In this document: one piece after another, positions 6,440-53,428 of the stretch
Position numbering within the stretch: the stretch's first letter is position 1
How the letters are laid out: every line of letters begins with the position of its first letter
From: a virus
Taxonomy: Duplodnaviria > Caudoviricetes
Length of the DNA stretch: 64,000 nt
Strand: one strand, 5' to 3'
IMG/VR virus record: IMGVR_UViG_3300028805_000048
Notes under the pieces: model-generated
The model's input: only the letters and a program-made list of their open reading frames with translations
What the model was told of the DNA's origin: nothing
Database searches by the model: none
Made by a program: the position numbers and the translations under genes

Positions 6440-6808
6440 ATGAAAATAGATCCACATCCATATCGTAAATTAGAAAAAAGAATTTTAATTTATTGTATTA
6501 ATCAAACATCAAATGATATACATAAAAAAATATTAAAAAATTCTATAAAAACTAGTAAAAGGTTAAAAGGTGGATTTACTGAAATAAGTATGCCTGCTAA
6601 AATGAATTATAAATTATTCATTGAATATACAGAAAATTTTATAAAAACAAATTTTAATGATATAATAAAATGTGAATATATATCATTAGTTGATAAAAAT
6701 ACACGTCATGCTTATGATGCATATAATAAAATAAGATTATCAATTAATTATTCTAAAGCAAATTCAGAAGATATAGAAACATATCTAAGGATATTACTGC
6801 ATGAATAA
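6440..6808 (+). CDS. Hypothetical protein, C-terminal helix family
   Basis: Ends IETYLRILLHE. Confidence 0.55.
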   Translation: MKIDPHPYRKLEKRILIYCINQTSNDIHKKILKNSIKTSKRLKGGFTEISMPAKMNYKLFIEYTENFIKTNFNDIIKCEYISLVDKNTRHAYDAYNKIRLSINYSKANSEDIETYLRILLHE

Positions 6809-7154
6809 TATTGTAGAATCTTTATTAAAAATAATATTTAATTTAATAAATTGTAGAATAATATCTATAAACGTCATTAATAAAAATGAAAATAATAATA
6901 CAGAGATAGATTTCTTGATAGCTCTTCATGATAATAATTTAAAATATATTCCTCTTATGTTGGACTTGTGTAAAGAATTAGACGTCTCAATAAAAATTCA
7001 ACACGATTTTAAAAACAATTTTAATAGTTTAGAAATAGAGTTTAATCAAAATATTCTAAATACCAACGTCTCTAAATTAAATGAATTTGAAACAGTATTA
7101 AGATTACAAGGATTATATAATCCAGAAGCAAAAATATTTGTATGTGATCTTTAG
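6801..7154 (+). CDS. Hypothetical protein, C-terminal helix family
   Basis: FETVLRLQG near C-terminus. Confidence 0.6.
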   Translation: MNNIVESLLKIIFNLINCRIISINVINKNENNNTEIDFLIALHDNNLKYIPLMLDLCKELDVSIKIQHDFKNNFNSLEIEFNQNILNTNVSKLNEFETVLRLQGLYNPEAKIFVCDL

Positions 7155-7159
7155 AAAAA

Positions 7160-7850
7160 AGAATAAAAAAATAAGATTAGTAATATAAAGCGACACGACT
7201 AATAAATAGACTTTTGTCGCTAGATAAAAAAGAAGCGGAATAGGAATAGAACAGGAAGGAAGAAAACGAGAACAAGATAAGGAATGATCAAGACTTTTAT
7301 ATGATCTAAACAGATCGAATAAAGGTCTGTTAAAGGTTAGTTAGTATGAAATCAATCAAGACGGTTGAATCCGACCTACTGAAATTAGAATATTGTCTAC
7401 TTTGTTATACGTAAACGGCGTGGGGCCGGCGGCGTGGTGGGCGGCCACGTCGTAAAAAATCACTTTGTTTTTTATAAATATGTACGTTGTATTTTTTATA
7501 TATTATTATAAAAACATAAAATAAATAAAATAAAACATATATAAAATTTATATTTATTTATTTTAATTCAAAAAATCAAAATAAAATATATAAAAAACAA
7601 CTTTGCAAATTTTATTATAAAAAATCAAATTTAACTTTGCAAAAATAAAATATCTACTTTGTTTTTAAAATATTTATAATAAAATTATAAATTAAATAAT
7701 AAAATATATATAAAATTTATATATTTAATTTATCAAAAATAATAAAATAAAAAATATATTATATAAGCTTTATATTAAAATAAATAAAGTTTTTATAATA
7801 TATTATTATACTCAACTTTAACATTAACTTTAACGTCATGAAAGGAGTAA
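7160..7850. other. Large non-coding region: candidate replication origin or genome terminus
   Basis: Purine-skewed tract, 37-bp GC island at 7416-7452, then ~380 bp almost pure A/T with repeated ACTTTG boxes. Confidence 0.45.
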
Positions 7851-7854
7851 AGCC

Positions 7855-8226: not shown

Positions 8227-8247
8227 GCGGCCCAGCCTACCCCCGGC

Positions 8248-8299: not shown

Positions 8300-8352
8300 C
8301 TTTGTGAGCGGCGTTCAGTTTGATAATCAATATTTTTAAAGGAGTAAAGCAA

Positions 8353-9076: not shown

Positions 9077-9082
9077 AAAAAA

Positions 9083-20183: not shown

Positions 20184-21865
20184 ACTTTAAACTGAAGGAG
20201 AATGGTTATGACGTCAGAAGTTAAAGAAGTAGTTTTAAGTACATGGAAAAGAATATATGAAGCTTGGAAAAACCATAATCTTAAATCATTAGATGAATAT
20301 GATTTAAGATATCGTATTATTGCTTTTCATACTTTCCATGAGATAGTAGATTCTTATGCTGATTGGATAGCACACAATGGTAAGAAAATAGATTGTGCTC
20401 CAGATACTCAGAAGATATATAAAGATTGTTATGAATGTACATATCGTACTCTCAAAATAGAGAAAGAAGAAAAGATGCGTCAAGTTATCTGTCAGTACAA
20501 TAATTCCATGGATGAAGTCCTTGAAGAATTTGGTATAGGTCGTATTACTTATGGTAATAACATATCTTATAGAGTAACAAATCTAAATAAGTTTTTCTTA
20601 AAAGTATGGGATGAGTATTTAGACAAACGTATCCAAGAACTTGGTATCAAAGGTCTTAAACTTAAAGATAGAAAGAAAGTAACTTGTAATTCACACGAGT
20701 TATTTGATTTCAAAGATGCTGAATTTGGTGTAACTGAAACTAAGGAGGAATGACTATGGAAAATAATTCCGATATAGAAAAGCTTAAAAATTATCTTGAA
20801 AAAAGAATTAACAATGAACTTCGTGACCTTCATGCTAGTTATTTTGTTAAAATTGAAAAAAATTTATATAATAAGTTTTGGCGTATTAAAGTATATCCTG
20901 TAATAAATGAAAGACAAAATGTTGAATTTGGTTATTGTGCATTAGAAGATATATTAAGTGAAAACAATGTGACTAAAATGTTAGGTGAGTTTACTGTTGA
21001 TGAATTGAATAACTATATAACTCTATTAAAAATGAAAGGAGAAATTTAATAATTAGAAATTAATGGCTTTACTTTATCTAATAAGTAGTTTATTTTAATA
21101 ATCATTGAAAGGAGAAAACATATGGCTTTAAGCGATGAAATAGAAGCAAAGCAAAGAGCTAAAGATCTTTTTAATAGTCTTTGGGATAAAGCTTCTGAAG
21201 ATGAACGTAGATATTTAATACAGCATACTCTAGATACAGAAGGTCCTGATGCTGTTAAAGAATTATTTAGTCCAGCGTTTGTAGGAATAGTTGAAAGTAT
21301 GATTACTGCTGTTCCAGCTAAAGAAGAAGTAAAAGAAAATGAACCTAAAATATCATTGAATGGGATACCTGTAACTCTTGATCAATTGAAAGAAATATTA
21401 CCTTCTCATGAATGTGATGAAGATGGTAATGAAATCTATGTCAAAGAAGAATATCTTAAAGTAGATGATTCTGTTGACAAAGACAATACTTATGTTGTTC
21501 TTGGTTGGATGGATTGGCCAGGTGGTGAATCATTCATTAAAGATATAGATTTAAATAATCTTAAAGCTCAAATTGACAATGGAATTCGTGATTCAGAAGT
21601 TTTAATAGCTAACATTGAATTAACTGATGAAGCTTCTGATGGAGGTTTCTTACAAGCTAAACATTTTACAAAAAATGAAGCAGAAGATATTGTCAATCTT
21701 TTGAATAGTGTAACATGTACTGACACAGCAAATCCAATAATGCTTGGTGAAAATGATAACGCTGCTATTAGTATAGCAGATTATCTTAAAGAAGCCAATA
21801 GTATTTAGATATTGTTTATTATTATGTTTTTGTTTTAATTTAATTTTATTGAAAGGAAATATATC

Positions 21866-22364: not shown

Positions 22365-25300
22365 AAAAAAAAATCTAATTCTTAGAAAGGAGTTTATCAT
22401 GGCACTTTTAGATACATATAAACCAATGCAAGAATACATTACAAATTATCTTAATTCAAAGACTGGTTTTAATTTTAAGATTGTTGTTTTTAGTAAACTT
22501 AATCGAATTGCGATATGTATTGATTGTTATGATTCTAACAAGCCTTTTAACTATTTTATAGAGAAACTTCAAGAATTAAAAATAGACTTTGTAATTGAAC
22601 CAAACAATGGTTTTGAAGATGAGTATATTACATTAACAGAAGATGAATATCTTAAACTATATACTTCATGTAGTTTACAAAATAAACTTTAAAAAAGAGA
22701 GGTGATGATCATGTGGCTTACATATACTACTGGTTTACGTGAAGAAGATAGATTATGTAGATCTGCTAATCAATTATTCTTTAATGTTACAAATATGCCA
22801 ACAGATGTTTTTAGACGTGGTACAAGATATACTGATTGTATTAGTAATCCAAATATGTTTGTGATCATACCTGGTTATTGTAGTACAGAAACAATGAAAA
22901 TCTGTGCTGTTCAGCAATTAAGAAGCAGAATATATAATGAGTGTGGAATGCTTCTTGGAGGAAGTGAAACAGCTTTTCTTGAATGTACAAAAGAACAGCT
23001 TGAAGAAATATTAACTGTCTTTAAAATGAAAGGATACTGATATGGATGACAAAGATTATGTTATAAAGAAATGGTATCTTAATAATGATGGTATTTCTTT
23101 AACAATATATTTTAGAAGAAACGATATATTTTATGGATTTAATTGGTCAATGAAATTAGGCTTTGATTACTTATCAGGTAATATTATATTTCCTGCATCT
23201 AATTTTGGTTGTGTTTCTTCTGAAGCTGGAACATATAGAAAACATCACACTAAAGAAGAAACTGAAAATTTCTATAAAGAATTATTAAATCATATGGATA
23301 TTACCGAATACGAATATCATGATGGAGATAAACCTTATTGTATTATAAGTACAGATGTTTATAAAAATCTTTTAACTATCTGGAAAATGAAAGGAAGGTG
23401 TTGATATGACTGGTAAAGAATTTGAAGCTTGTGTTTTGTTAGAAAATGTTTTTCATCAAACACTGCGCACTATATGTCCCGATATTTCTCAACATCATTA
23501 TGATATACTTACAGACGATTGTGATGAATACATAAAATTTAAACTTTATGTTAGTGGAGGATTTAAACAAGTATGGTATTCACGAAAATTAATTCAATAT
23601 TTAAATAAAGAATTAAGTGGTATACATATGGATTATGATAAAGATAATTATCTCAAAGGATTTCTCATTAAAAGAAAAGATATTTATAATGTTGTAACAT
23701 ATTACAGAATGCGAGATGTAATATGAATATATATAAATTTAAAATGAGTATTAATAAAACCATTTGTGCTGTTGTAAGCCATCGCATATTATCTTTTTAT
23801 ATACAAAAGAGCTTTGATGATATTGGATATTTAACTTGGGATAATAATATTCGAGGTTTTAAATTATATTATCAAAACGAAGATAATAAAATGGATTTGT
23901 TAGCTTTTTTAGAAACAATTTGTGGTATACAAACTAAATATGATTCATACAACGTATGGATTACTTACGAAGATTATTTAAATCTTTTAACATTTCTTAA
24001 ATTGAAAGGAGAATAGAGATGGCTATTTGGATTGTAAATGGAAGTGAAAAGAAAAGATTAATTCAATGTAAGCGTAATGATATTGTTAATCGCAGTGATT
24101 CCAATATCGGAACTAGATTATGTTATTCTATATCAAGTATTTATGACAATGGGATATCTTATGGATCTGCTTATTTTAAAGATGACGCGTCAGAAGATGA
24201 AATGACTTATGGAAAATATGATTTTTTCGAATGTCAACAAATTGAATTAAAATTTAGTGATGAAGAATATTATAAGATTGGTACTAGTCAAAATGGATTA
24301 GGTGAATATGCTAATGTGCTAAATTATATATCGAAATCTGTTGGTAAAGATTTACTTTGTATTTATACAGAAAATACATTTGGGATGTTTATAGGTTTTT
24401 ATAGAGAACATGGTTTGAAAAGAAAACATAGGATTTTCGGTATCATTAAGGATTCTGTTAAATTTATACCCAATAAAAATAACAATGTTCCTGTAATAAC
24501 AAAAACACATAACCATAAGACATTTAAAGAATTCATTGCTCCAACCCTTTTAAATGATTTAAATTTGTTTAATGTGATTAATCACTCAGATGTTTCTAGA
24601 TTTAAATTTGAAAATGAGAATTTTATAAAAATTTATGTTGGAGGTAATAATGTTTGGCCACATGAAATACAAAAAGCTATCATTGAATGTTTACCAATGA
24701 TTAAAGAAAAATTATTTGCTGGTAAATTTAAGAAATTCTGTGAAGATTATAACGTCACTGATATTTCTTTATTAAAGAATATCATTGGCGAAGATAGAGA
24801 TCTAGAATTTGATATTTCAAATCTTGGAAAGGAGGAAGAAAATGAATCATGATGTTTTAATGTTTGTTGAATTAAATCAAAGAATTAACTTTAATAATGA
24901 TTCATATAAACCTGGTATCATTTTAGATAAAGGTATATATGAAGTTATGGAATGGTCGCATCATAACCAAACACACGGTGAATATAAATATGATTATGTA
25001 GATCTTATTAAGGTTGATACTCGTGAACGTATTCACTTCATGTTATATCATCCAGAAAACTATAGTAATCTATTTACAGTTCATACAGAGTTTGTACCTG
25101 TATGTAGTTAAATGCTTGATATTATTATGTTTTTTTTAATTCTAACCACGTTTGAGAGGAGAAACACTATGGGACAAAGAACACAACTCGTTGTAAAAGT
25201 TACTGAATGTATCGTATCTTATAACAATCCTAAACCAGAATTTAAAACACATACTGCATCATATCATAATCAATGGGGATTAGCTAAGATGCAACTTAAA

Positions 25301-33403: not shown

Positions 33404-33745
33404 ATGAATGAATATATTAAGTCTTTTAAAGAAGCTGTAGAAAAATTAGAAGAAGATTATGATTTGTCTTATGGAAGATATTTAGGATCTTTAGTGAGAA
33501 ACAATGATGATTATCAATTTTATAAATATCCAAATGATTATATTGAAATAGTTCACGCTGATTATAATAAAGATAAACATAATATATATCCAAAAAATTT
33601 AAATACTAAAGGAAAAGCAATCGAAATGATATTTAGATTACTTGGAAATGGATATAGCTATTCAAATGATGCAGGTGCATTAGGTTACGATGACCAAGGT
33701 AGAGCTGAATGGTATGAACATAATCATCCAATAGAAAATAAGTAA
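33404..33745 (+). CDS. Late protein with leader family A (putative internal head protein)
   Basis: MNEYIKSFKEAVEKLEE; AGTTCTA at 33356. Confidence 0.7.
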   Translation: MNEYIKSFKEAVEKLEEDYDLSYGRYLGSLVRNNDDYQFYKYPNDYIEIVHADYNKDKHNIYPKNLNTKGKAIEMIFRLLGNGYSYSNDAGALGYDDQGRAEWYEHNHPIENK

Positions 33746-33848: not shown

Positions 33849-34637
33849 TTAATTGATTCTTAATATTATTTCGTGCCACTGATCAAATCTAAAATTACAT
33901 TTAGGTCGATATTTTTCATATTGTTTAATGAAAGATAACATATATTCGTCATTAACTTTTGCTGGATTATATCCAATTTCAATATCATAATTCCATTCAT
34001 CTCTCACTGCTGTCACTACTACTAAATCTTGTTTAATTAATTTTTCTAATTTTTGTACTATGTTATCTCTGACACTATACGCTTTGTATTTAGAATTATG
34101 TAATCCTCTTCCCATATATTCATCTGTTTTTTCGGTATCTAATATTTCTATTTTAGCATTAGGAAGATATGTTTTAATAGTATTAGTTATTTGTTCAAAA
34201 TCATCGTTTTCACAAAATTTTTTATTTATCATAAATCCAACGATATAATTTTTTATATTATATATAACATGAGGATTATCATCTGAAGTCATTTGTTCAT
34301 ACGCTTCATTATCTTCATCTTTTTTACCTGTCAAATATAAAGGCTTTCTTCCTTTTCCTACAACATTTACTTCATGATAAGCACCTTGTAATCTTGTAAC
34401 TTTATAATTTTCAGATAATTTATCTCCATCTACTACTAATTGTACAGGATAGTTAGCAAAAAATTCCATTTTATTTGAACTAAAAGCTATACCTCTATCT
34501 TGATATGCTATCATTTTATTTGATTTTAGTATTTTTTCTAACGCATATACAGTTGTACAATGATAAAGTAAACCAACTTGTTTGGCTTCATCTAATTTTT
34601 TTACATCTTTTCTAAATTTTTCAATATATTTATTCAT
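33849..34637 (-). CDS. Putative packaged ADP-ribosyltransferase-like protein (leader A)
   Basis: MNKYIEKFRKDVKKLDE|AKQVGLLYHCT...GIAFSS...HEVNV. Confidence 0.5.
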   Translation of the reverse strand: MNKYIEKFRKDVKKLDEAKQVGLLYHCTTVYALEKILKSNKMIAYQDRGIAFSSNKMEFFANYPVQLVVDGDKLSENYKVTRLQGAYHEVNVVGKGRKPLYLTGKKDEDNEAYEQMTSDDNPHVIYNIKNYIVGFMINKKFCENDDFEQITNTIKTYLPNAKIEILDTEKTDEYMGRGLHNSKYKAYSVRDNIVQKLEKLIKQDLVVVTAVRDEWNYDIEIGYNPAKVNDEYMLSFIKQYEKYRPKCNFRFDQWHEIILRIN

Positions 34638-35315: not shown

Positions 35316-36191
35316 CTATAATCTACGAGATGGATAATTAATAGTTTTAATTTCTGGTAATTCATTTATTTGATTGTTTTTTAATAAAGCTTTATGTCCT
35401 TTTTCATCTCGCAAATATACCGGTAAATTAGGATACATACCTTTAAACATTTTTATATTTCCATTTATTTCTTTAACAATATCATTTAATTTATTTTTAT
35501 CATAATGTGTCTCAACTTCTGATGGATATCTGATTATTAAACCAATTAAATATTTATTCAAATTATTTATAGACAATGGTTCAACTAAATCGTTAGAATA
35601 TTCATCATTCCATATAAAAATCTTATCAACTAAATTTTTAAATTTATTAAATTCAGCCAAATGATCTAAACTTGATGAATCGAAATGCTTTTTAAAAAAT
35701 TGTTTACGAGCTTTATCCATTTCATTACTCATATTTTCATAAGGAATTTTTAGTTCACCTGTTTCATTATCTGTATAACTATATGTTTGTTGTGAATTTA
35801 TATATTCATATAGTTCTTCTTTGGATATTTTAAATTTTTCTAATATTTTTTTTAATTCTTTTTCAAAAGTACGCTTTTCTTGATGAGGCGGTATAACTTT
35901 AAATTCACCAGCACTTTGTCTAGATTGATATATTTTATAATTATCTGATAGTTTATCACCATCAAATATTAATGTATAATAACTAAAACGATGCCAACCG
36001 CGATCGTTAAACCAACCCTCATTCTTATCAAAAGATATACCACTGCTAGTTTTAGCCTTTAATGAATCATTTTTAAGTATTTCTACTAAGTTTGGGGTAT
36101 TATGATATAATAATCCAACTTGTTTGGCCTCATCTAAAATAATATTGTTTTCTTGCAATATATTTTCTACGATTTTTTCCCATTGTGACAT
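35316..36191 (-). CDS. Putative packaged ADP-ribosyltransferase-like protein (leader B)
   Basis: MSQWEKIVENILQENNIILDE|AKQVGLLYHNT...GISF...DGDKLSDNYK...GEF. Confidence 0.5.
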   Translation of the reverse strand: MSQWEKIVENILQENNIILDEAKQVGLLYHNTPNLVEILKNDSLKAKTSSGISFDKNEGWFNDRGWHRFSYYTLIFDGDKLSDNYKIYQSRQSAGEFKVIPPHQEKRTFEKELKKILEKFKISKEELYEYINSQQTYSYTDNETGELKIPYENMSNEMDKARKQFFKKHFDSSSLDHLAEFNKFKNLVDKIFIWNDEYSNDLVEPLSINNLNKYLIGLIIRYPSEVETHYDKNKLNDIVKEINGNIKMFKGMYPNLPVYLRDEKGHKALLKNNQINELPEIKTINYPSRRL

Positions 36192-36746
36192 TTATCTATC
36201 GCCTGTTATTATTTTACCATTTAAACGTAAATCCCAATTGTCATTATTAAATGTATCTGAATCTAATATCCATTTATATAATTGTTTTGCTTCTTCCTCA
36301 GAATTCAGTGTTATTTTACCATTTTTAGATATTTCAGTAAAAGCTTTTTCGACAGTATTTGCTATTTTAAATTCTTCAGGTCTATCGACAAACAATTGTG
36401 TAAATTTTGGATCATCTGAATATCCTTCAAGTTCTAAAGTATTTTCAAAATCTTCCCATTGTACGAACATTAATATATTTATACCAGCTTCATATAAATA
36501 CTTACCTATTTGATAATGAGTTCCATAATCAGCATCCCAAACATAGGTATTACCATCATCACCGTAAATACCACGAACAGAATTATATTTAGTATTTTTC
36601 TTAAAATTTTTATAATCATTATAATTAAGATTTTTTAATATACGTATTAATTCATTATTTTTACCATATACCTTTATAATACTTTCTATTAAAGTAATAT
36701 CATTTTCTTTCAATATATTTTCTACTATTCTTTCCCATTCAGACAT
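36192..36746 (-). CDS. Putative internal head protein (leader B)
   Basis: MSEWERIVENILKENDITLIE; VRG...YVWDADYGTH; AGTTCTA at 36780. Confidence 0.65.
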   Translation of the reverse strand: MSEWERIVENILKENDITLIESIIKVYGKNNELIRILKNLNYNDYKNFKKNTKYNSVRGIYGDDGNTYVWDADYGTHYQIGKYLYEAGINILMFVQWEDFENTLELEGYSDDPKFTQLFVDRPEEFKIANTVEKAFTEISKNGKITLNSEEEAKQLYKWILDSDTFNNDNWDLRLNGKIITGDR

Positions 36747-36933: not shown

Positions 36934-39900
36934 ATGAAAATTCAACACGAAAAAGCAAACGGATTTTGTCTTGCTATATTAAAAGAATGCACATTATTAG
37001 ATGAACTTGGTAAAGTAAGATATGATTGTAAAAAGCCAGGCATAATATTTTATACAGCAACTTCTGGTTATAGTAATAATACTCTTTATAGACATATAAA
37101 ATTTGGACTTGGAGGTAAGAATGTTTTAGATTATTTTGATATAAAACTCTATAAAACATCTATACATGTTAATCTCAAAAAAGAATATATAAATCATATA
37201 GATGATCTAGAAATATTATTAGAATTACAGAATTTTTGGAGTTGATAATATGATTTCATGGAATGTATCAGAAGATTTACAATGGAAGCATGAGCTAGCT
37301 AATCATTTTTGTTTAAGATTTTTAAGTAAATTTATTAATTGGGCATCCTTCGATGATGTTAAATATAATAACCTTGTTCCTGGGGTTATAATCATATGTG
37401 ATAATACTGGATTCAATTATATAGATGTAGTTAATAATACTCTAAAACATTATAACATTAATTCTTATTTTAATGTGAAAGAATATAAGTATTCAATACA
37501 AATTAATCTTAAAAAAGAATATATCAATAAAATAGATGAATTAAAAACTTTACTTAAAATTAGAAATATATTATAATGGCTTTACTTTATCATTTGTATA
37601 GCTTATAATATAATTATAGTTTAAATGAGGAATATATGATATTACGAAATTTTGATATACACGTTAAAAATTTATTAAAAAGTGAATTTCCTAAATGTGA
37701 ATTCGTTGTACACATTTATACACATAAAGATTCTGGATTTGTAACTAGAGGTTATCATATAGTAACTAAAAATACTAATATCTATGAAATTAGAAATTTT
37801 GCAAGAAAATATCCATATTTCGATGGTGTAGTAGGAAATCCATTTCTAAATTATTCTCAACATGATCTCGAAGAATCAATTGTTGTACCTGATTATATTA
37901 TGCTTAAAAAAGAATATAACAATCATGAAAGTATATGTAATTTAGTTACTTTATGGAAGATGAAAGGACTTTTGTAATGTTTGCTCAAATTAACGATTTA
38001 GATTATATAAAGTATTTAGATGGTGTACGTAAAGAATTTAAATTAACATCATCTAATTATATACTTGATATTGAAGAATGGGAAAATAAAGAATTCACAT
38101 TATATGTTTGGGATAGAAAAGGAAATGATAGTAGATATGCTAAAAGTATAATTCAAAAGACTGGAAGTAAACTTGTTGAAAAATTAGAATTTCTTAAAGA
38201 TAGACAATGTGATGCTCATTGGGTAATTCCGAAAGATTTATATAATTATTTTCTTAATAAAGGTGAAATTACAAAAGCTGGTTTAAGAAGTCTTATAGAA
38301 AGGTATTTAGAATCAGAAATTAGAGAAAATCTTAATTTAAAATCATTTGCAACATATGATATGATATGGATAGATGAAATGTTTTATTATAAAAACTATA
38401 ATGAATTTAAAAATGATTATCTTTGTATGAATCTTCAATACACAAGTGAGAATAAAATTAAACGGATAATAGATTTTTTAAAAACTAATTACAATATAGA
38501 ATACATAAAAACTGAAAAAGAAAAATCTTGGTTTAAAATAAACGATATTGATATGGTTTATACATTAATTAAATTAAAAAATGGATAAGGAATAAATAAT
38601 GTTTTCTGAAAAAGTATCAGAAGAAATATGTTTTAAGCATGAACAAGCAAATCATTTTTGTCTCGCTGTTTTAGAACAAGTACATTTAACACCATATATT
38701 TTGAATAATATAATTAATATTGATTACAATAATAATATTCCTGGTCTTATTATCGTTTTTAAAGAAGAAATAATAGATTTTATATATTATGAAATAAGAA
38801 AATTATACAGAGATAAAAATTTGATTAATTATTTTAATTGGAAAAGATTTAATAAATCGATACACATTGATTTGAAAAAAGAATACATAAATAAACTAGA
38901 AGAATTAGAGACACTTTTTAAAATGCAAAATATATTTTAATGGAGATAATATAAATGACATTTAAATATTTTAATCAAATGATTGAATTGCTGTATTTAA
39001 TCGTGGAAATAAATTTTAATAATAAAAATGGATTTATAACAAAATTAGGATTTTTATATACATATACAGAATATATTCGTGATAGAAAACATAATGGTGC
39101 GTGTGAAAATTGTAAACAACTATATAACAAATTTAATGAATATTTAAAAAATAAAGGATTTGATAAATACATTCGTGTTAGATATCCTTATATGAATTCA
39201 GAAAGAAAAATTGCAATAGATTTCAATGAAAAAATAGATATGAATGCTGAATTAGAATTTATAACACTTTGTAAACTATATAATATATGAAAGGAATATA
39301 TAATGCTTATAGTTGATAATACGAAAAAATTAAAAGACATCATAGAATTTAAAGACGGTACTTATTACAAGTTTGTATGTCTTTTAAGAACTAAAGATTA
39401 TAAAGATTCTGATGAAGAACCAATGCTTAAGTGCATGGAGAAGCAAGAAATTCTTGTTAAAGACTGGTTGATCGATAGTCAAGAAATGTTAGATAAAACT
39501 TTACCTGACATGCTTAAATTTACAGAAACATTTAAATGCAGACTGTATATGTGTACAGATAGAAAATCTGTTGTGAAGACTTTAAAGACTATGCGAGATA
39601 TAGTACAGAATTATCTTGATCCTTTTATTGGTAATTCTAATGTGAATTGTTCTGTGAGAGCAATTAAGAAAATTTGTTCTTCTGCCACAAATAAAAGTGA
39701 ATCATCTGATAGAGAAGGAAGAAAATGGTTATTTGATGTTGATTCAAAAGCAAATATTAATATATTAAATGATTTAGATAAAGTCTTGAAAGATAAACTT
39801 TTAGCTAAATTAGAAACAAAGAATGGTTATCATTATATCACGAAGAAAGATTTTGATGCTTATAAAGTTTTAGAAGATTTGTGTTATATTTATAATCGTG

Positions 39901-40303
39901 TTGGAGAAGATTTTCCTGTTGAATTAAAAGATAATGCTATGACTTTGATAGCAATGGGATAAAGACAATGGTGTATGATATGAGAGATGCTTTAAAATGC
40001 AATGACAAGATGTACTTAGTTTTAAACGATCTTTTAAAACAAGTTAATCGTTATTCGAATGATGGAAATACATATGATAATGTTATTCACTATCAATATC
40101 TTACATATTCACATTTACAAATATATAGTGAAATAGTAAGACAATGGTTTAATAAATATGAATTTTTAAAAGAATATTTTGAATTAGAAATTACTCCTTC
40201 TATTTATGATTTAAAAATATACATGAAGGAAGAATATTTTAACGAAGAAACGTTGGATAATATCATAACTGTCATGAGGATAAAAGGAATGATTGAAGAA
40301 TAA
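36934..40303 (+). other. Cluster of C-terminal-helix family genes (36934, 37250, 37636, 37977, 38599, 38955, 39968)
   Basis: All end in an (L/I)xTLxK(M/L/I)x(G/N)-like motif; 36934/37250/38599 are full-length paralogs (HExANxFCL...LKKEYIN). Confidence 0.7.
39303..39962 (+). CDS. AEP (primase-polymerase) superfamily-like protein
   Basis: WLFDVD (DxD) and ETKNGYH motifs. Confidence 0.45.
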   Translation: MLIVDNTKKLKDIIEFKDGTYYKFVCLLRTKDYKDSDEEPMLKCMEKQEILVKDWLIDSQEMLDKTLPDMLKFTETFKCRLYMCTDRKSVVKTLKTMRDIVQNYLDPFIGNSNVNCSVRAIKKICSSATNKSESSDREGRKWLFDVDSKANINILNDLDKVLKDKLLAKLETKNGYHYITKKDFDAYKVLEDLCYIYNRVGEDFPVELKDNAMTLIAMG

Positions 40304-40340
40304 AAAAACTCCAATCTAATTAAAGAAAGGAGCTAGTTTT
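40303..40340. terminator. Terminator, reverse-complement paralog of 33775-33809
   Basis: ctccaatctaattaaagaaaggag. Confidence 0.65.
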
Positions 40341-40364
40341 TATTTTTACAAATTTAAATATTAA

Positions 40365-41111
40365 TTATTTATTTAGATAATCATAATCAGCATTTTGGAA
40401 ATCATATTCTGGTTCAATATGATTATAATGTGATGTACTCACAAACTCATTTCTATCTAAATTTTTATTTCTTTCGCCAGACAAATACATATCAGCATCA
40501 TATAATAAATCTTTTACTTTTTTTAATTTTTTATTATCTTCATATTCACGATATAAGTCATATGCAATCACATAAACATCTTGAACCTTTCTCATAAGAT
40601 TCCAAAATCTATCATCGTGTTTCATTTGATCGTTATCCATATCATAATCTATAGCTTGTAATAAACCAGGATTACCATCATCCTCTTCTAATTTTTCTAC
40701 AGCTTCTCTAAAAGACTTAATATATTTGTTAGAAAATTTATCTTTATTATTGACACTTTCATATAAAGAATTAATCCAATAATTATAATATTCTGGTGTA
40801 AATTCTCCACCATCATTGCTAAGATCGAGATATTTTTTTATATCATTAATATCATAACCTGTTTTAACTACAAGTTTCGTACGAAGTAAGTATCTAGAAT
40901 ATTCATCTAAAGTTTTATAAAATTTTAAAAAAGCACGTAAATCACGGGTAGCAGAATAACCATCGCTATTATCGTAACCTAACTGATCAAGTCGACTTTG
41001 TTCACCTTCTATTTCACCCTTATCATTTTTAATAGGATGTAATTCGAAGATATTCTCTATTTTATGTATCGCTTTATTTATGTAACTTGTATCCAATTTC
41101 TTTTTTTCCAT
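40365..41111 (-). CDS. Late protein with an internal copy of leader A
   Basis: Internal NKYIKSFREAVEKLEE; AGTTCTA at 41158. Confidence 0.65.
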   Translation of the reverse strand: MEKKKLDTSYINKAIHKIENIFELHPIKNDKGEIEGEQSRLDQLGYDNSDGYSATRDLRAFLKFYKTLDEYSRYLLRTKLVVKTGYDINDIKKYLDLSNDGGEFTPEYYNYWINSLYESVNNKDKFSNKYIKSFREAVEKLEEDDGNPGLLQAIDYDMDNDQMKHDDRFWNLMRKVQDVYVIAYDLYREYEDNKKLKKVKDLLYDADMYLSGERNKNLDRNEFVSTSHYNHIEPEYDFQNADYDYLNK

Positions 41112-42280
41112 AATTTCTCTATTCCTTATAGACGTATAAAATATTAACTTTGATAATTAGAACTTACATAAAAGCTTTACTTTTTTGTTTTAATACTATA
41201 TATTTAATAAATATAAAGGAGTATTTATGAAAGGATACGATTGTGATTTATAAAGGAATTAGTATAGTTGATTTACTTTTTTATTTATTATATGATTTAT
41301 TTGAAATATATAAATATAAACATTTTTTATATATTGCTTGTGAAAATAAATCAATAAGTTTATGTGCAGATAAATATTTTAAGCAATTTAAAACAAATAT
41401 GAAAGATTTTAAAAACAATTTAATCGAATGTATTAATAAAAATGAATATGATAAATTGTTAATAATAAACTTTAACAATTTTGATGAAACACATGAGATT
41501 GTTTATGGAGATACATTATGTAATATATCATTAAATTTAGAGAATGAAAATAAAATTGATCAATTAATTACTTTATATAAAATAAAGGAATATTTATAAT
41601 ATGTTTGAATTTATATTAAACGGAATGTTTAAAGATTTTTCTTTAATAAAAGAAGGTATTGTTTCTATATATAATTCACCAAACGAAATTCGCATGATCG
41701 CACAAGAATGGATTAGTAGATATTATATTGAATATGAAGTAAATAATTATTTAGAAGAAAAAGGTTTTGAAAATTATATACATATGATATATCTTATTAA
41801 TACAGATTCTCATACTATATATAAATCTGGAGAAGTGATAGCTGAAATTAGATTGAGTCATGAAGGAATAAGTAAATGTCAAGAATTAGAAACCTTATTT
41901 AAGATGGAAGGACTTTGCTATGTATGATGGTAGAGAAATACGTTATAGCGATTTGCTTTTATGTATGTTAAAGGATTTTAAACCAAATGGAAATAATCAC
42001 TTTATATTTCTTAATACTTATGATGAATTAATAAGTATATGTGCAGATGCTTATTTTGATGATAAATATATTAAAATGACTATGAAAGTGTTTAAAAACG
42101 AATTAATGAAATATCTTCATCAAAATGGATATATGGAAGTATTAATAATACATTTTAACTTCGCTGATGAAAATCATAAAATTTTTGCAGCTGATATGCT
42201 TTGTGATATATCATTCAACGAAGAAAAGGAAGATGAAATTAATCAAATCGTTACTGTTTTGAGAATGAAAGGATTAATTA

Positions 42281-42514
42281 ATGCTTAAATTAAATTATAA
42301 TCAAAAAGTATCACTTAAATATCTTAGAAGATTAGTTAAACCATGTAAATGCTGTGGAAATACTAATCCTCGTTTTGATAATCTTAGAGGATGGACAAAT
42401 GTAACAATTGTTTGTAATAAATGTTGGAAACAAAAAGCCGTTAGATCAACTGTTGAAGAAGCAATAGAAGCTTGGAATAAATTAAATAGAGAAGATCAAT
42501 CATGTCATATGTAA
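42281..42514 (+). CDS. Lar-like zinc-ribbon protein
   Basis: KPCxxCG...CxxC...EEAIEAWN. Confidence 0.65.
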   Translation: MLKLNYNQKVSLKYLRRLVKPCKCCGNTNPRFDNLRGWTNVTIVCNKCWKQKAVRSTVEEAIEAWNKLNREDQSCHM

Positions 42515-43031
42515 ACGAATTGATAGAAAATAAAGATTATCAAGAGATAACAAAAGCTTTAAATATTTTACGTGACATTATTCAATTAAAAGGGTTAGAA
42601 ATTACGGATAGAGCAATTTCTATTTCTCAGTCATTTGAAGATTGTAATATAGAATTTTCTGTTTATGCTAAGAGTAGTTCTGATAATGTCAAAAGTGGTT
42701 TTACTGTTGTTGGTAGTTATGATTATTGCTTATCAAATAAATTATACAGACATATAAAAAAGTGTTTAAAAGAAACTGGATTAAACAAGTATTTAAGAAT
42801 TCATCCTAAAAGTTTTAGTTCAACAGCATCTTTAGAATGTATATTTTTTTATGTTTTAGAAATAAAAAGAACGTTAACGAAAACACAATTTTATGAATTA
42901 ATGACATATGGAAATCTTTATAAATAATAGAAAAATGGCTTTACTTAATCAAAGTAAAGCCATTATAATATAGATATAATTAAAATAAAAATATTATTGT
43001 ATTATTTCAACGTTAAAGAAAGGAAAATATC

Positions 43032-44177: not shown

Positions 44178-45628
44178 ATGAGTATTATTTATCAAATTTC
44201 ACAAAAAGATAGGTTTATAATTAAATTATTCAACAATATATTCAATAGTGTTTTTAATAAAATGAATTTTAGTTTTAGATATACAAAAATAGCGAATTAT
44301 CAAGAACCTTCATTAGGTATACATTTGAATAAATTTGATAAAGTATCAATTAAAGATTTTTATAAACTTCATCAAGAAATATTAAATTATTTAAATAAAA
44401 ATTTATTTGATAATCAAATTTATATAAGTAATATAAATACTAATTTTTATTTTAAACTTTATTTAAAACATGAATTGTCTGACAATTTGATTACGTTTTT
44501 TAAAATGAAAGGATTGTGATTATGAGTGAAGAGAAAGTTTTAGGTAGACCTTGTAGAATGGCTGGAATGAGCCATATTTATATTATTGATAGTTTATGGT
44601 ATACACATTCTTTATATCCAAGTATTTATGGATCAACTGGTGATTTTAATTTTGTTACAATCGGTGTTGTTAAAACATATGACACAATTACAAAGGAATA
44701 TAAAACATATATTGGTGTTGGTAAAGGCGACGATATGGAAATGGATGAAGATAGAATTGCTGGATGTGGAACAAGTTTTACTAATCCTGTAAGTTTCGAT
44801 GATATGAAAACTTGGTTAAAAATGAAAGAAAAATAAATAATGATTTTCTATACAGAGTTTAAAAATAGAATGAAACTAAGTGAGTTTTTATATGAAATTT
44901 TTTATAAAGAAAATTGTATTAGATATCAAATATCATTGATTTTACCTGGTTGTATAAAATTTAATTATTTACAGCAATACCAAATACATAGAATTGAAGA
45001 AATTTTAAAAAATGTTTATTTATATGATTATTTTGAAATCTATCAATCAAATGATCGTAAAAAAATGGTTGTTGAATTAAAAAATGAATATAACAATGAA
45101 GAAAAGGTAGAAAATATTATATTAATTCTCAAATTAAAAGGATTATTTTTATAAAACTCACGATTTCAAAAATTGCAAAGGGTAATAAATTAATGATTAA
45201 TTATAAAAAATATGATGAAATAGTTAGAATGTTGAACAATTTAGTGAATAAATATTTTCCTAAAGAAAATGATTCTATCGATTCACCTGTTTTTATTGTT
45301 CAAAACTGTTTAAAATATTCAGAAAAAACACTTGCTAGTGTACCTACATATATATGGTTTAAAGTTTATAATAACAATGACGTTTTTGCTTTTTATAATC
45401 CAAAGAATAGAAAAGAAACAGTGGAGTATTTCATAAATAATTGGAATTTTATATGTCAAGAAGAAAATTATACACGTAGAAAATATATTACCTTTAAAGT
45501 AAATGATGTTGATGAATTATATATGTCATTAAAATTATTAATTTCTTAAAAACAAAAGCTTTACTTTTTATATTTTTAACTATATTATATAAATAGTTAA
45601 AATACGAAAAGGTGTAAAGGTATAAATA

Positions 45629-46713
45629 ATGAAATTGCGTCAAGGAGATATAGTTTATATACAAAAAGAAGACAATAGTGATCCAGATAAGTGGCATAAA
45701 TCTAATGAAATTTATGTTATAAGAGATCAAAGTGAACAATCTGTACATTTAAAAGTAACACATAAAATAAGTGATGATGATTTTGTTGAATATAAAGAAT
45801 TAATATATGCTAAATTGAGTAAAATATTTTTATATTTTGCCGGTTATGGAAGAATGAAAGAATTAGATTATTTAGAATTAAATTTAATTTGCGCAGAATT
45901 AGAAATACCAAGTCAAGTCGTTGAAAAGTTTGTAAACGTCTGTAATGGTGAAAAGATTAATAAAAGCAAAATACATTATGTATACCTATAAAACTATTTA
46001 TGAGGAAATAAAAAGTGACAATGTTAGCTGATAAATACTTTCAAATAAGACCAGATTTCAGAATAGAATTGTTTGGTAATGATAACCAAGGTTGGGGTGA
46101 TGGTAGAATATTTTTAACTGGTACAAAAATATTAGATGATAGTCTACGCTTAGTAGAAAATCAATATACGTTTATATATGATATATATCAAAATAGTTAT
46201 AAACTGCGTTTATATAATAACATTGACAATAGTCAAGTATTAGATTATTTTCAAACATTAATTGAACTTAAAAAATTCAATATACCAGACGAAATCGGTA
46301 ATGAATTTTTAGAATTGTGCAATAAAGCTCGTTCTGATTTAATTATAGTTAAATGAGGCAATGCTTATTAAAGGTTATAAAAAATGACTATACGAATACT
46401 TGATACAGATATAATCTTTCACGATAAAAAAGAAAAAAATCGTTTATTGATGATTAGAAAAACATATATTAAATTATATGATACATACGTTATATATCTT
46501 ATGAGCTTATATAAGCATACTTGTTATGGATATAGACAAGAATTTGAAATAATGAAAAATAATGAAAATGCTTATTGTTTAAATTTTCCTAGTTTAGGAA
46601 GAATTTACACTTTTGATTATTTAGAAATATTGTTAAAATCACAGCAGATGAATATACCTGATAATGTGATGAATGAATTTATAAATATCTGTAACAAATA
46701 TCATAATAGATAG
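45629..46713 (+). other. Three genes of a second paralog family (45629, 46015, 46384)
   Basis: C-terminal DY(L/F)...IPxx(V/I)xxxFxxxCN motif. Confidence 0.65.
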
Positions 46714-46720: not shown

Positions 46721-47599
46721 TTATTGTTGCTTTTCATACCATTTCATAAATTCTTCAAGAGTCCAAAATTCTAGCCAGTTAAGATTATTCTTTTTAGCAG
46801 TTTCACGTTTTAATGGATCAGAAACAGTCCAGACGCATATCGCTACATCATAACTTTTATAACCTTCTTTGGCTTTTTGTTTCCATTTTCTTAACGTTTC
46901 TCTATGAATTTCATTATTTTCATCAAAAGGTCCAAGTGGTTTATTTAATATCCATCCATGGGTCCAATAACCTTGATATTCGATCCAAGTATCAACTTCT
47001 GGAATATAAAAATCACAAGCAAATGGATATTTTTCTGTATTGTATTGTCTTTTTGTAAACGGATAAATGACTTTTAATAATTCATATATGTAATCTTCAG
47101 TTTTAGATTTTTTAAATAAATTGTGTTTTTTCTTTGTTTCAAATGCCTTTTTCCAGATGTTTTTATTTTGCATATTGTGTTCGACGCCATATCGATTTAA
47201 ATTAGTTTGTTTTATTTTGTTTTTAACCTCATCTAATTGAAATACATTAATTATTTCATTATCATTCAAATACTTATCCATTTTTTCTTTATAATCTTTT
47301 GTTTTGAAATATATATCATCACCATATTTCTCTTTACAAGTATGTTTAATCTTTTTTAATGTTTCTGGAATACCTCCTGCATTCGTTGTACCATATTTTT
47401 CTAAACATATTTTTTCTGTATTTTTTACACGTAAAGAAATAGGTTTGCGTATATTCAATTCAGCTATTCGTTCTTTAAGTAAGGCTTCTGAAACTTCAAA
47501 ATATTTAGCTAATTCTTTTCTTGTTTTATTTTCAACTATGTAAAGTTGATATAATTCATCATAATGAATTTTATTACGTAAATTTTTCATGTTTTTCAT
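46721..47599 (-). CDS. Free-standing homing endonuclease-like protein (Vsr-like PD-(D/E)xK domain, KIKxTxxExYG repeats)
   Basis: N-terminal HTH-like region, three xT(C/N)LExYG-type repeats, SKTE...CDFYIP...IEYQGYWTHG. Confidence 0.7.
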   Translation of the reverse strand: MKNMKNLRNKIHYDELYQLYIVENKTRKELAKYFEVSEALLKERIAELNIRKPISLRVKNTEKICLEKYGTTNAGGIPETLKKIKHTCKEKYGDDIYFKTKDYKEKMDKYLNDNEIINVFQLDEVKNKIKQTNLNRYGVEHNMQNKNIWKKAFETKKKHNLFKKSKTEDYIYELLKVIYPFTKRQYNTEKYPFACDFYIPEVDTWIEYQGYWTHGWILNKPLGPFDENNEIHRETLRKWKQKAKEGYKSYDVAICVWTVSDPLKRETAKKNNLNWLEFWTLEEFMKWYEKQQ

Positions 47600-49896: not shown

Positions 49897-49951
49897 TTGG
49901 CTTTACTTTTAATTTGAAATAGTTTATTTGTTATTTTAAAGGAAATAACAA

Positions 49952-50518
49952 ATGCTAAAAGATTTTATTTTAAACTTAACAAAAGCTGAATATAAAATTA
50001 ACCTTTTAATGCTTGGAAAAAAAGAAGCTTTAAAAGATAATAAATATTGTCTTTTTTCATTAACTGGACAAGAATGGCGAAATTGTTCTATTTTATCATA
50101 TACTGATTCTAGACAATTTGTTTCTGAAAAAGAAATAGTAGAATTATTTGAAGATAAAATAGAAAAAATATATCCTTCTCTTTGTAAAGTTGGATATTAC
50201 GATTTTGATAAAACAGGAATCTGTGGTATATATGAAGATAAACTCAGTGACTTTGTAAAAGATATTGAATTACCAAAAGAATACGAATATTTGCTCATAA
50301 AAAGATTTTTACAAGGATATCTTACTTTAACTTTAAATTCTACAAATACACTCACGCCAACTTTCAAACTAAGAAAAGCTTGGACAGATATAAATGATAT
50401 AAAAAGAATAGAAAAAGAATATCTTCTAAAACTTGTTAAAGAAACAGAATATGATTATGAATTAAAGATTTGTGAACCAGATGGTCTTCTTGGATTATTA
50501 ATGATGAAAGAAGACTAA
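49952..50518 (+). CDS. Hypothetical protein
   Basis: GGCTTTAC promoter at 49899; SD aaagga. Confidence 0.6.
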   Translation: MLKDFILNLTKAEYKINLLMLGKKEALKDNKYCLFSLTGQEWRNCSILSYTDSRQFVSEKEIVELFEDKIEKIYPSLCKVGYYDFDKTGICGIYEDKLSDFVKDIELPKEYEYLLIKRFLQGYLTLTLNSTNTLTPTFKLRKAWTDINDIKRIEKEYLLKLVKETEYDYELKICEPDGLLGLLMMKED

Positions 50519-51117
50519 TCCTCTTTTACAGAATCATTTCCGTAAATATCCATCCCTCTTGCTTTTTGAGCAAAATATTCATCGCTATCGTATTGTAAAG
50601 ACTTTGGTGGATGTTTATATTCTTCATATGTCAATTCTGGATTAGCATACCAGTCGTTAAATTCGTCCATGTTAAATATCTCAACATATCGATAACCTAA
50701 CTCTTTAGCTATTTTACGCTTTAATGGCTCTAACTCTGTCCATGTATAAAGAACTTTCGCGTAATAATCACCTTTTTTAGACTTAAGCCATTCTACATCA
50801 GCTTGACAGCTTGGATCTTCTGGATCGTATGGACGTCTTCCATGACGCCAGTTTTTATTGATTTGAATCATCATCTTTTCAGATGGTACATAAGCATCTA
50901 CTTGCCACGGTCTATGATTAGAAGGATTGCGAAAATCATCAAAAGTCACAGATTTTTCTGCATCTGGCCATTTTTTCTTGATCAAATTCCAATAGTATTC
51001 TTCGTCTTCAGAGCTATTATATCCGCTATCTTTATCGAATATTTTTCCATCGCCTTCTTCGAGGTTATAACCGTAATTTTCTAATATGCTTTCTACAAGC
51101 TTTTCAAACTGAGACAT
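50515..51117 (-). CDS. Leader-B protein carrying a Vsr-like endonuclease domain homologous to 46721
   Basis: MSQFEKLVESILENYGYNLEE; VDAYVP...IQINKNWRHG...WT..EPLKR.IAK; AGTTCTA at 51151. Confidence 0.7.
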   Translation of the reverse strand: MSQFEKLVESILENYGYNLEEGDGKIFDKDSGYNSSEDEEYYWNLIKKKWPDAEKSVTFDDFRNPSNHRPWQVDAYVPSEKMMIQINKNWRHGRRPYDPEDPSCQADVEWLKSKKGDYYAKVLYTWTELEPLKRKIAKELGYRYVEIFNMDEFNDWYANPELTYEEYKHPPKSLQYDSDEYFAQKARGMDIYGNDSVKED

Positions 51118-51209
51118 ATCTTAATAAATCCTATATTTCATGATGTTATTTAGAACTTAATTTTTGTAAATTAAGACAATGATAAAAGGCTTTACATGAT
51201 AAATGCAAT

Positions 51210-53428
51210 ATGATATTATTTATTATATTTGATGTAAAGGAATTTGTCATGGGTCGATACACATTAAAAACTGCTAAAAATAAACATAAAAAAGAATTTT
51301 CTTGTGTTGAAAAATGGGATGGTGAAAGTGGTGATGTATTTTCAATAGAAATAATTGGTAATAATTTAAAAGATACATATATTTCGTATGACGTGTATCA
51401 TGATTTTATCATATCTATCAATAAAGATAAATCGTTACGTTATGAGCATTTCGATTTGTTAAAGCTGTTAGTATTTATAGAGATGTATGATATTCCTAAA
51501 AAAGTCGTAGAAAAATTTATTTCAAAAATAACAGCTATAAGACAAAAAATTAACTAAAGGTTTTACAATTTACTTCATGCATGGATAGTTAATATATAAA
51601 TTTAAAAAGAGATTAATCATGATAACAGATCATATATACAAATACAAATCAGGTAAAACTTATCACATCGGCTATATTCCAAATATATATTTATATATTG
51701 AAATACGTAACAATAAATTTGTTGAATATTTCATTGATTATGATGCTTTACACATTGATAAAAAAATACATTGTAGGAAATATGATGAAAGTGTATGCAG
51801 TTTTATAATAGATGGTGTATTTTGTTTTGATTTCATGTTGATTGTTTATAAATTGGCTAAATTAAATATTCCAAAAAGAGTATCAAACGCCTTTTTGAAA
51901 AAAGCGCAAGAATTAAATCAATGTTTAAAAGGGTAATTTGAATGCATAGAATTAATTTTAAACTTCATTATCCTCAATACGATATATCTGAAATATCAGA
52001 TTATATAGTATTTAAAAATTTGATTTTAGATAATAAAGATAAACCGATTATATACAAAAATGATGAAATATATATAAATGATGATTGTACACGTTTATCG
52101 ATTTCATATACTATTTACGGTATGGATATGATGGTGCAAGAGAGTATAGAAGAAGCTATTAATAGAATAAAATATTATATAGTATTAAATGGTTTAGATG
52201 AATACATTAGTGTAAAACAAGATTATGAAACAAATATCATTTTACAATTTTTTGTAAAAAATATAAATGAATTGAAAGTAGATTTTAAATTGAGAGGAAT
52301 AATATAATGAAAAAATTTACAAATGAACAAATATTTGAATTTCTTATGTTAATTTCTGAAGAATTAAAAGTGTTTATTCCATTTTCTAAAAGAATGGAAA
52401 TTTATCGTTTATATAAAGAAACATATTCTGAAAAGAGTACACCAAATATTAGATTACCTAAATATATATTAAAAGGAATAAAAGAATCTGATATAAAAGA
52501 TTTTGAAAACAAATATGGTTTAATGGTACTCAATAGCTATAATTATGATTTTATAATGTTTTTAGATTTTGATAATTTTTTCACATTTCTAAAATTGAAA
52601 GGTAAATAATGTTGACGAAAGATGACGAATACATAATGATTGTACACGGTACATTAGGTAGAAAATTTATTAGATGGCTATCTAAACGTTGTGATGTGTT
52701 TGAAGTCAATAAAGTCTGTGATCATGCCATTAGATATGGTGTATATAATGATACAAAAAGATATTCTGATAAAAAGGTTATCGAAAATTTAAAATATAGT
52801 AGACCATACGTTATTAGATTTGAGTTAAATGAAGATATGAAAACTGTACTTCTTTTAGCAGGAATTAATTTAGAGAAATATATCAACGATATGTGGTGTC
52901 CAATATATATAAGTCACAATGCACCATATGGACGAAAGAATATGCGTAAATATTATGGAGCTGCTAATCGTAAAGATTTATGTATAGCAATATTAGCGTA
53001 TTGGTCTCATTCACACCCTAGATGTTTTCCTCATGATATAATTTATTATCATGATAGAAAGAAAGGAGTAGAAAATGGAAACATGGATTGAAAACTTAGA
53101 TCATAAAATGCTTATGAATATAATGTTAAATAAGTATTTACTTGATAAAGTAAAAGAAGCTTTAGAAGTAGTCGATGTTGGACATTCTTATAAAGAAGAT
53201 CAAACGTTTCAACTTTGGATAGAATTACGCAAATTACCTAGTAAATCTGATTTACGTGTTAAAGCTATAATCAGAAATATAGGATTAGATAGATATATGA
53301 AAGTAAATTTTAACATAGATAAAAACTATTTATATATTGTATTTAATCTAGATCCAAATTTGACAAAAGAAGACATGGAATCTATATCCGGTATTCTACT
53401 TTTGCTAGGATATGGAAATAATATATAA
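51210..53428 (+). other. Hypothetical genes: 51210 and 51619 (IP-motif family); 51942, 52307, 52609, 53075 (C-terminal helix family or related)
   Basis: Shared motifs; promoters at 51188 and 51559. Confidence 0.65.

Follow-up and report, generated by a model that had tools for sequence, protein, structure and literature searches.

A conserved C-terminal tail probably marks one fast-diverging family of small phage proteins

Main finding

The stretch of DNA analysed here (the window; 64,000 nucleotides (nt) of IMG/VR virus record IMGVR_UViG_3300028805_000048) comes from an uncultured tailed phage, and its plus strand carries many small genes whose otherwise dissimilar protein products end in a similar short tail, for example LLTIWKMKG. 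The reading that we favour, with a probability of roughly 0.6, is that these proteins form a single fast-diverging early paralog family with an αββαββα fold, and that their conserved tail is a unit of β-strand, helix and cap whose last two codons double as the Shine-Dalgarno (SD) sequence of the next gene. About 25 paralogs of about 110 residues, ~12% of the phage's genes, would lie in translationally coupled tandem arrays driven by σ70-type, early-looking promoters. The tail would be the last structural unit of the domain and would run from strand β4 through an acidic or N-cap turn into an amphipathic helix of 10 residues (Φ-x-x-Φ-x-T-Φ-Φ-K-Φ, where Φ is hydrophobic), closed by G/N at the C-cap position and then a hydrophobic residue. 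It would be the best kept part of the protein, the preceding α2-β3 region with its G-Φ-x-x-Y-Φ element being kept less strongly, and its AAA GGA (K-G) codons would have been co-opted as the SD of the downstream gene. The proteins may be a diversified set of small binders that act in host takeover or counter-defence, with the conserved half as a putative scaffold and the variable half as the putative source of specificity; analogy with expanded viral families and genomic position both suggest such a role. The shared tail is real, and it looks less like a separable docking tag than like a piece of one shared fold.

The tail motif and its enrichment

An earlier note on this DNA had quoted 22 C-terminal strings of this kind; all 22 are present, and the coordinates by which it named the proteins are the starts of their open reading frames (ORFs), which we retain here as gene names. 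A strict form of the motif, T-[LIVFWYMC]-x-[KR]-[LIM]-x-[GNDE], was scored in the last 14 amino acids (aa) of the 215 genes in our approximate gene call of the whole 157,473-bp genome to which the window belongs (below). It is found at the tail of 18 of these genes, all within window positions 20750–52609, where ~0.5 are expected from its internal rate (13 per 44,681 positions), and in 0 of 343 rejected ORFs in non-coding frames. The note had allowed that the signal might disappear once the codons that overlap an SD were masked, and this did not happen. When the last two motif positions are dropped, the remaining 5-mer, T-Φ-x-[KR]-[LIM], has 19 tail matches versus 1.68 expected (Fisher p = 1.4e-12); in the region's 51 small plus-strand genes, 18 copies are at tails and three are internal (p = 3e-17). 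Shuffled controls, which the note had proposed, agree: with the last 40 aa of each protein shuffled, tail matches averaged 0.31 and never exceeded 3, against the 18 observed.

Related phages carry such tails as well, 13 versus 2.4 expected in record G001 and nine versus 2.0 expected in G002, with LYTLLKLEG, FITLLRIEG and MITIFRIKG as examples among the relatives. The residues that follow the motif Gly vary in number (0–12) and in kind. The internal versions of the motif described before are likewise genuine, and stand at residue 48 of 188 in 56152 and at residue 93 of 124 in 59817.

A single family, or a shared tag on different bodies

The proteins that carry the tail are uniform in size. Twenty-one of the 22 are 97–122 aa long, in good agreement with the 95–125 aa previously given for most of them, and the standard deviation of these lengths is 6.9, versus 50 for other small genes (resampling P < 1e-5). 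The description of the group as massively expanded also holds, at ~25 copies whose sequences are otherwise hardly alignable. BLASTP links only small subsets of them, and 33 members compared by their bodies alone fall into 27 clusters. A full-length hidden Markov model (HMM) unites nine members, and another, 42502, was found by its body alone (rank 1, E 4.6e-5). In the multiple alignment (A1) a mid-protein helix is followed by G/N-Φ-x-x-Y-Φ, and at least 90% of the aligned sequences have its Tyr. We also carried out a tail-free test, in which residues −52 to −7 relative to the motif Thr were used, each BLAST cluster was left out in turn, and 1208 proteins were ranked. The top 5% was reached by 14 of 35 members (1.75 expected, p = 5e-10), and the median rank was 82/1208. 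A whole-body version of the leave-out procedure, also without the tail, placed 11 of 33 members in the top 5%. The earlier picture of independent "variable modules" joined to a tag finds no support in that form, given this common domain size and the α2-β3-β4 region that most members have in common.

A structure of 38599 was modelled by AF2 from a 47-sequence family alignment, and the result is a compact αββαββα domain with a mean predicted local distance difference test (pLDDT) score of 91.6 and a predicted template modelling score of 0.81. Its elements are helices 8–27 and 32–37, strands 38–43 and 49–54, helix 59–72, strands 79–83 and 87–92, and helices 94–97 and 100–109. The motif, L-E-E-L-E-T-L-F-K-M in this protein, is helix 100–109, straight after strand β4 (87–92), with a pLDDT of ~90 there, and the Q-N that follows the helix occupies the position of K-G in other members. 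Gly, Asn and Asp favour the left-handed αL C-cap position of the Schellman motif, after which a hydrophobic residue usually comes next, and in family members a hydrophobic residue does stand after the cap position (KG-LL, KG-Y, QN-IF). By these capping rules and the modelled secondary structure, the final G/N of the motif fits a predicted helix C-cap.

Comparisons of this model with known structures gave matches at noise level. Foldseek searches against PDB and BFVD returned E values above 0.009. In the VIA comparison, where a typical best Z of 7–8 is the noise range, the best match was Z 6.7 (3.6 Å over 92 residues) to a trehalose-6-phosphate phosphatase cap (6d3v_A), followed by RRF (6vud_B, 5.6), EpsL (2w7v_B, 5.5) and ArgR-C (2zfz_A, 4.7), all within noise; domains of the GspL/GspM/PilN/PilO type (2w7v_B, 6ghu_A, 5uvr_A, 1uv7_B) gave Z 4.0–5.5 over 67–74 residues, below the noise mark. 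The αββ-αββ sandwiches among these (GspL/GspM/PilO, RRF domain II, ArgR-C and the phosphatase cap) resemble the model in the order of their secondary structure elements, whereas identities are 4–15%, scores are at noise level and the extra C-terminal helix is the hallmark of the phage family, so functional inference from these matches is not justified. ESM Atlas, which contains no structure of 38599 or 41920, had no usable match for 38599, and its ARM/HEAT look-alikes for 41920 (0.89, ~130 shared features) were disregarded as below the tool's reliability marks. A LAGLIDADG homing endonuclease was considered from the αββαββα topology and dropped. I-DmoI chains gave Foldseek probabilities of 0.12–0.20 and TM scores of 0.27–0.30, and none was within the VIA top 50. 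No LAGLIDADG-type motif with an acidic catalytic residue in helix 1 was seen by eye in the aligned members.

Several observations weigh against a single family. Some 8–10 members are recognisable by the tail alone (6801, 20750, 22702, 30442, 37636, 44516, 52307 and some relatives). Tail-masked hhalign comparison between ortholog groups gave no signal (median probability 0.26 versus 0.19 for controls), in a test whose power is low at 1–7 sequences per group and without a secondary-structure term. A confident structure model is at hand for one member only, and the AF2 model of 44516 (positions 44522–44833), with a pLDDT of 51.7, is β-rich with a terminal helix and unlike αββαββα; the tail of this protein is kept in orthologs of 94%, 69% and 42% identity. 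Lastly, the tail is far better conserved than the other core elements; structure alone does not easily account for this, and room is left for the docking or oligomerisation idea discussed next. Pairwise identities of tail versus body are uninformative here, since global alignment inflates body identity at this composition. To judge from the sequences, the N-terminal halves have diverged past recognition, and in a few members the N-terminal half may have been replaced; a few may thus carry the tail on a rebuilt, different β-rich body, as the low-confidence model of 44516 suggests.

Alternative roles for the tail

The first alternative, which we consider rather unlikely, is that the terminal helix docks variable bodies onto a single hub, which might be RNA polymerase, the ribosome, a protease of the host or one of the phage's own proteins, or else promotes the formation of mixed oligomers, so that the proteins would make up an adaptor or anti-defence library. 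It draws on the tail being conserved much more strongly than the remainder of the protein, also between phages with capsid proteins that are 77–89% identical, and on the settings in which the tail is found: on the possibly different β-rich body of 44516 (low-confidence model), on the 203-aa protein 37977, on G001 proteins of up to 321 aa, and internally in 56152. A conserved polar stripe of the tail, formed by Thr, K/R and the N/D/E ahead of them, likewise goes beyond what a hydrophobic core by itself would require. Set against this, the helix belongs to a compact domain in the confident model, its conserved positions are chiefly hydrophobic or capping, and most members share α2-β3-β4 and one size; moreover, a co-occurrence screen for genes present in G000 (the record that holds the window, below), G001 and G002 and absent from G005 left 25 candidates and did not single out a hub. 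The earlier note had set its docking idea against the possibility that the motif is simply a buried core helix of a single fold. We lean toward a core helix of a single fold in so far as the motif is the last helix of the modelled compact domain. The tail is also far better kept than the rest of that fold, so that docking on a hub, and an anti-defence role, keep some probability.

Much less probable still is a sorting or turnover signal, be it a membrane-targeting amphipathic helix in the style of MinD or FtsA, a protease degron, or an encapsulin-like cargo peptide for an HK97-fold capsid. The tail is amphipathic, Lys-rich and close to the C-terminus, and the arrays flank a gp23-like capsid gene (below); encapsulin cargo peptides of the T-V-G-S-L-K-G type bear it a superficial likeness that serves as a lead only. 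Such a cargo peptide needs to be extended behind a Gly/Pro/Ala-rich linker, whereas in the phage proteins no flexible linker is seen and the motif comes directly after a β-strand and is modelled as a packed helix at pLDDT ~90. In addition, the promoters look early and not late, and the variable residues after the Gly make a free-end degron unlikely.

Overlap with the Shine-Dalgarno sequence of the next gene

The suggestion that MKG can serve as the SD of the following gene was confirmed by both spacing and codon use. In about 11 genes (22702, 23042, 23723, 41243, 41601, 41920, 44516 and 52307, also 28078, and, after start-codon correction, 37636 and 44178), 5–10 nt separate the K-G codons AAA GGA from the start codon of the gene that follows, and the motif Gly is GGA in nine of ten cases, compared with 34% of Gly codons genome-wide (binomial p ~4e-4). 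Where the motif ends in Asn, as in 38599 and 38955, a separate SD is found 3' of the stop codon. These genes therefore have what defines an SD embedded in an upstream gene, an AGGA-like element at the right distance together with a matching codon bias. The bias is explained by co-option of the K-G codons, which account for the last two of at least nine motif residues; the rest of the motif is not explained in this way. The motif also persists, as had been noted, where no SD is encoded or no coupled gene follows: 20750 is followed by a gap of 81 nt that includes a promoter-like site, 37250 by one of 68 nt, and 39968 is the final gene of its operon. The motif Thr is encoded by ACT nine times, ACA seven times, ACC once and ACG once, and the Leu and Arg codons vary likewise, so it is the protein sequence that is under selection, rather than a DNA site. 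That the whole motif is a nucleotide-level by-product, either an SD or translational-coupling signal or a DNA junction for cassette recombination, is thus hardly credible, since constraint at the protein level removes both the "recombination junction" and the "pure SD" versions and the masked enrichment and the empty non-coding frames (above) agree, leaving it largely refuted apart from the K-G dipeptide.

Lineage restriction and evolution

A 27-member profile searched against 1.84 billion representative proteins gave 15 matches, all to the window's own or near-relative proteins, and word-based searches of 5.8 billion proteins returned two close homologs each for two members. Ten members searched against Pfam gave nothing above cut-off and no PRANC or F-box at E ≤ 1, PHROGs v4 gave only two marginal and mutually inconsistent matches, NCBIfam run on 47 members gave two stray matches to a single member each, and the best E value in a sequence profile search of PDB was 0.73. 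A literature search found no paper on the family or the motif. By these sequence searches the family appears confined to one uncultured phage clade.

The ratio of nonsynonymous to synonymous substitution rates (dN/dS), measured against the related contig L001, is 0.10–0.29 for family genes and 0.08–0.18 for their non-family neighbours; the family members are therefore real functional genes under purifying selection that evolve somewhat faster than the genes around them. Family copy number differs among related phages. L001 lacks 41243, and the slot of 38955 is taken there by a 37636-like paralog (61% versus 22% identity). Cassette turnover is visible at L001:17-349 and L001:1360-1851 relative to window positions 38955–39290 and 40303–41601, and a minus-strand gene at the L001 turnover locus encodes 105 aa instead of 248 aa. 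At much closer range, comparison of the window with G000 over 63.7 kb shows 19 differences, and all of these are at 41152–41918, in 41243, 41601 and the spacer upstream. Eighteen are transitions and eight are nonsynonymous, and the tract is either a site of local recombination or a diversification hotspot.

Promoters of the arrays

The family arrays are preceded by the sequence GGYTTTAC with a TATAAT-like hexamer ~17 nt downstream. Such GGYTTTAC plus −10 sites number 34 on the plus strand of the genome, versus 3.6 expected; most are intergenic and stand 20–100 nt upstream of the first gene of a plus-strand array. Plus-strand sites of this kind are found in the window at 4635, 6089, 21065, 27140, 36829, 37578, 42937, 49899, 51188, 53430, 53931, 56096 and 61236, among others. 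They probably serve as early promoters of the σ70 type, with an extended −35 element, and these promoter-like motifs, together with analogy, suggest that the family is expressed early.

Members of the family along the window

All members are on the plus strand. The first, 6801–7154 (117 aa, FETVLRLQG followed by 12 more residues), is a seed member of the HMM with E 1.4e-12, and its body is unrecognisable without the tail. The gene at 20750–21049 (99 aa, YITLLKMKG) has no coupled downstream gene. It is followed by 22702–23040 (112 aa, ILTVFKMKG), whose KG codons are 7 nt before the next start and whose G001 ortholog is 30% identical; by 23042–23404 (120 aa, LLTIWKMKG; unseeded HMM E 0.0034), in which the N-terminal half is apparently β-rich and the C-terminal half fits the family; by 23406–23726 (106 aa, VVTYYRMRD; unseeded, E 0.0015); and by 23723–24016 (97 aa, LLTFLKLKG), also a family member. 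Genes 28078–28380 (100 aa, FVLFHKMKG, in which Leu replaces Thr) and 28382–28726 (114 aa, LFTIFKIQN) have tail-free ranks of 20/1208 and 29/1208, respectively, and 30442–30792 (116 aa) is a family member in which RITALKLLG is followed by an acidic extension.

The next array starts with 36934–37245 (103 aa), which has the degenerate tail LEILLELQN and is tied to 37250 and 38599 as a paralog by its BLAST cluster and the full-length HMM. Gene 37250–37576 (108 aa, LKTLLKIRN) is without SD overlap and is followed by a promoter-like site; 37636–37977 (113 aa, LVTLWKMKG) has its KG 8 nt before the ATG at 37977. In 37977–38588 (203 aa, VYTLIKLKN; tail-free rank 6/1208) the C-terminal ~90 aa correspond to the α2-β3-β4-tail module. 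Next are 38599–38940 (113 aa, LETLFKMQN), whose structure model is the confident one, and 38955–39290 (111 aa, FITLCKLYN), which ranks first without its tail by whole body and fourth by residues −52 to −7. The operon-final gene 39968–40303 (111 aa, IITVMRIKG) has a dN/dS of 0.16 relative to its L001 ortholog.

Gene 41243–41599 (118 aa, LITLYKIKE), the one missing from L001, holds nine of the 19 differences between the window and G000. It is followed by 41601–41927 (108 aa, LETLFKMEG; dN/dS 0.10), with tail-free rank 1 by whole body, by 41920–42288 (122 aa, IVTVLRMKG; dN/dS 0.20), and by 42502–42927 (141 aa; unseeded HMM E 3.9e-13), whose tail is degenerate (YELMTYGNLYK) and which was absent from the earlier list. 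Gene 44178–44519 (113 aa, LITFFKMKG) is a family member. In the adjoining 44522–44836 (104 aa, MKTWLKMKE; named 44516 after a GTG start of the ORF at that position) the body is without family similarity, is predicted to be mostly β, and ranks 635/1208 in the tail-free test, and 44840–45154 (104 aa, IILILKLKG) ranks 3/1208.

Farther on, 51942–52307 (121 aa, LKVDFKLRG; unseeded full-length HMM E 0.0053) is a probable member; 52307–52609 (100 aa, FFTFLKLKG) is a member by its tail and has an unrecognisable body; and 53075–53428 (117 aa, degenerate tail ISGILLLLG) has tail-free ranks of 13 by whole body and 4 by residues −52 to −7. In 56152–56718 (188 aa) an internal β4-α3 module occupies residues 12–55 (IETLAKMSG; domain E 0.0067, HMM positions 76–113), and the C-terminal part beyond it is unrelated to the family. 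The internal copy in 59817–60191 (124 aa, IETVLKLNN at residue 93) is weak, with an HMM E of 0.089.

Source genome and neighbouring genes

The window corresponds to the final 63.7 kb of a single-contig 157,473-bp virus record (G000:C1:93805-157473). Its terminal 331 nt (63670–64000) extend beyond the end of G000 and do not match the G000 start, and the window therefore originates from a longer or differently cut assembly of a near-identical phage. The phage has a GC content of 28%, and the window encodes a gp23-type major capsid protein (31367–32926, minus strand; PF07068, E 1.3e-23), an NAD-dependent ligase, a DnaJ-domain protein and ten tRNA genes. The capsid protein is at best 32–37% identical to those in a phage collection, and DNA and protein searches of the phage database gave no match for the region or for a family member; relatives in IMG/VR, whose contigs reach 237 kb, have capsid proteins that are 69–89% identical. 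No BLASTP match (E ≤ 1e-5) was found in the related records G001, G002, G003 and G005 for 87 of the 215 genes, and by this sequence comparison the accessory content of the clade appears very fluid.

The genes that neighbour the family are almost all unannotated. A second paralog family, with no Pfam family, has five copies of 105–120 aa (45629–45991, 46015–46356, 46384–46713, 51210–51557 and 51619–51936) and a C-terminal element of its own, FDYL...(N)IPxxVxxxF, in which Asp, Ile-Pro and Phe are invariant in 5/5 copies (alignment A4). Further BLAST-linked paralog groups are mostly minus-strand genes of late appearance. Minus-strand groups are formed by 33849–34637, 35316–36191 and 36192–36746, and by 46721–47599 (a match to DUF7487, E 1e-12) with 50515–51117; 33404–33745 and 40365–41111 make up another group. 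The product of 54975–55337 is a response-regulator receiver domain that stands alone, with no output domain (PF00072, E 5.9e-10, above cut-off). The small Cys-rich protein of 42281–42514 has a weak match to Lar restriction-alleviation proteins (PF14354, E 0.0015, below cut-off), and its L001 ortholog is flagged in like manner; by eye, 56727–56957 has a similar CxxC...CxxC layout, without a Pfam match.

Comparison with known systems and significance

The orphan family described here is new, while an expanded, rapidly evolving viral accessory gene family is a known kind of system. The phage family resembles the lineage-specific multigene families of large DNA viruses, and the plastic early regions of T4-like phages, in its tandem, small, fast-diverging paralogs in early or accessory regions, in copy numbers and slot contents that vary between close relatives, and in purifying selection with protein change somewhat faster than in neighbouring genes. 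It differs from them in its scale for a phage, in having no homolog outside its clade among 1.84 billion representative proteins, and in the conservation of one short terminal element when the rest is unrecognisable. The poxvirus ankyrin/PRANC proteins are also a large viral paralog family in which a conserved C-terminal helical element follows a variable remainder; they are the paradigm of variable bodies that a shared C-terminal element docks on a hub, and the docking model resembles them in this. PRANC, which is F-box-like, is an independent domain behind the ankyrin repeats and binds Skp1, whereas ten phage members gave no Pfam match and the modelled helix closes a single domain of ~110 aa. 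T4 internal proteins and Alt have an N-terminal capsid-targeting sequence that is cleaved by the prohead protease, and they are expressed late. The likeness is a short terminal peptide common to otherwise dissimilar phage proteins, but the element of the present family is C-terminal and a predicted part of the fold, the promoters are of early type, and the N-termini are not conserved and show no leader of the capsid-targeting type.

A family that takes up about one-eighth of a phage's genes would be central to the dealings of this clade with its host. With its conserved and hypervariable halves and one confident model, it is a candidate scaffold for finding host-takeover or anti-defence activities, and it lends itself well to the question of why a single element of a fold is frozen while the remainder drifts. 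The K-G dipeptide that appears to cap the helix and doubles as a ribosome-binding site neatly illustrates dual coding, and it also advises that C-terminal "motifs" in tightly packed operons be checked for SD overlap before they are read as signals. If docking or oligomerisation of some 25 recognition surfaces on one hub were true after all, the family would give the phage a combinatorial library of early adaptors or counter-defence proteins, a counterpart of the ankyrin/F-box families of poxviruses.

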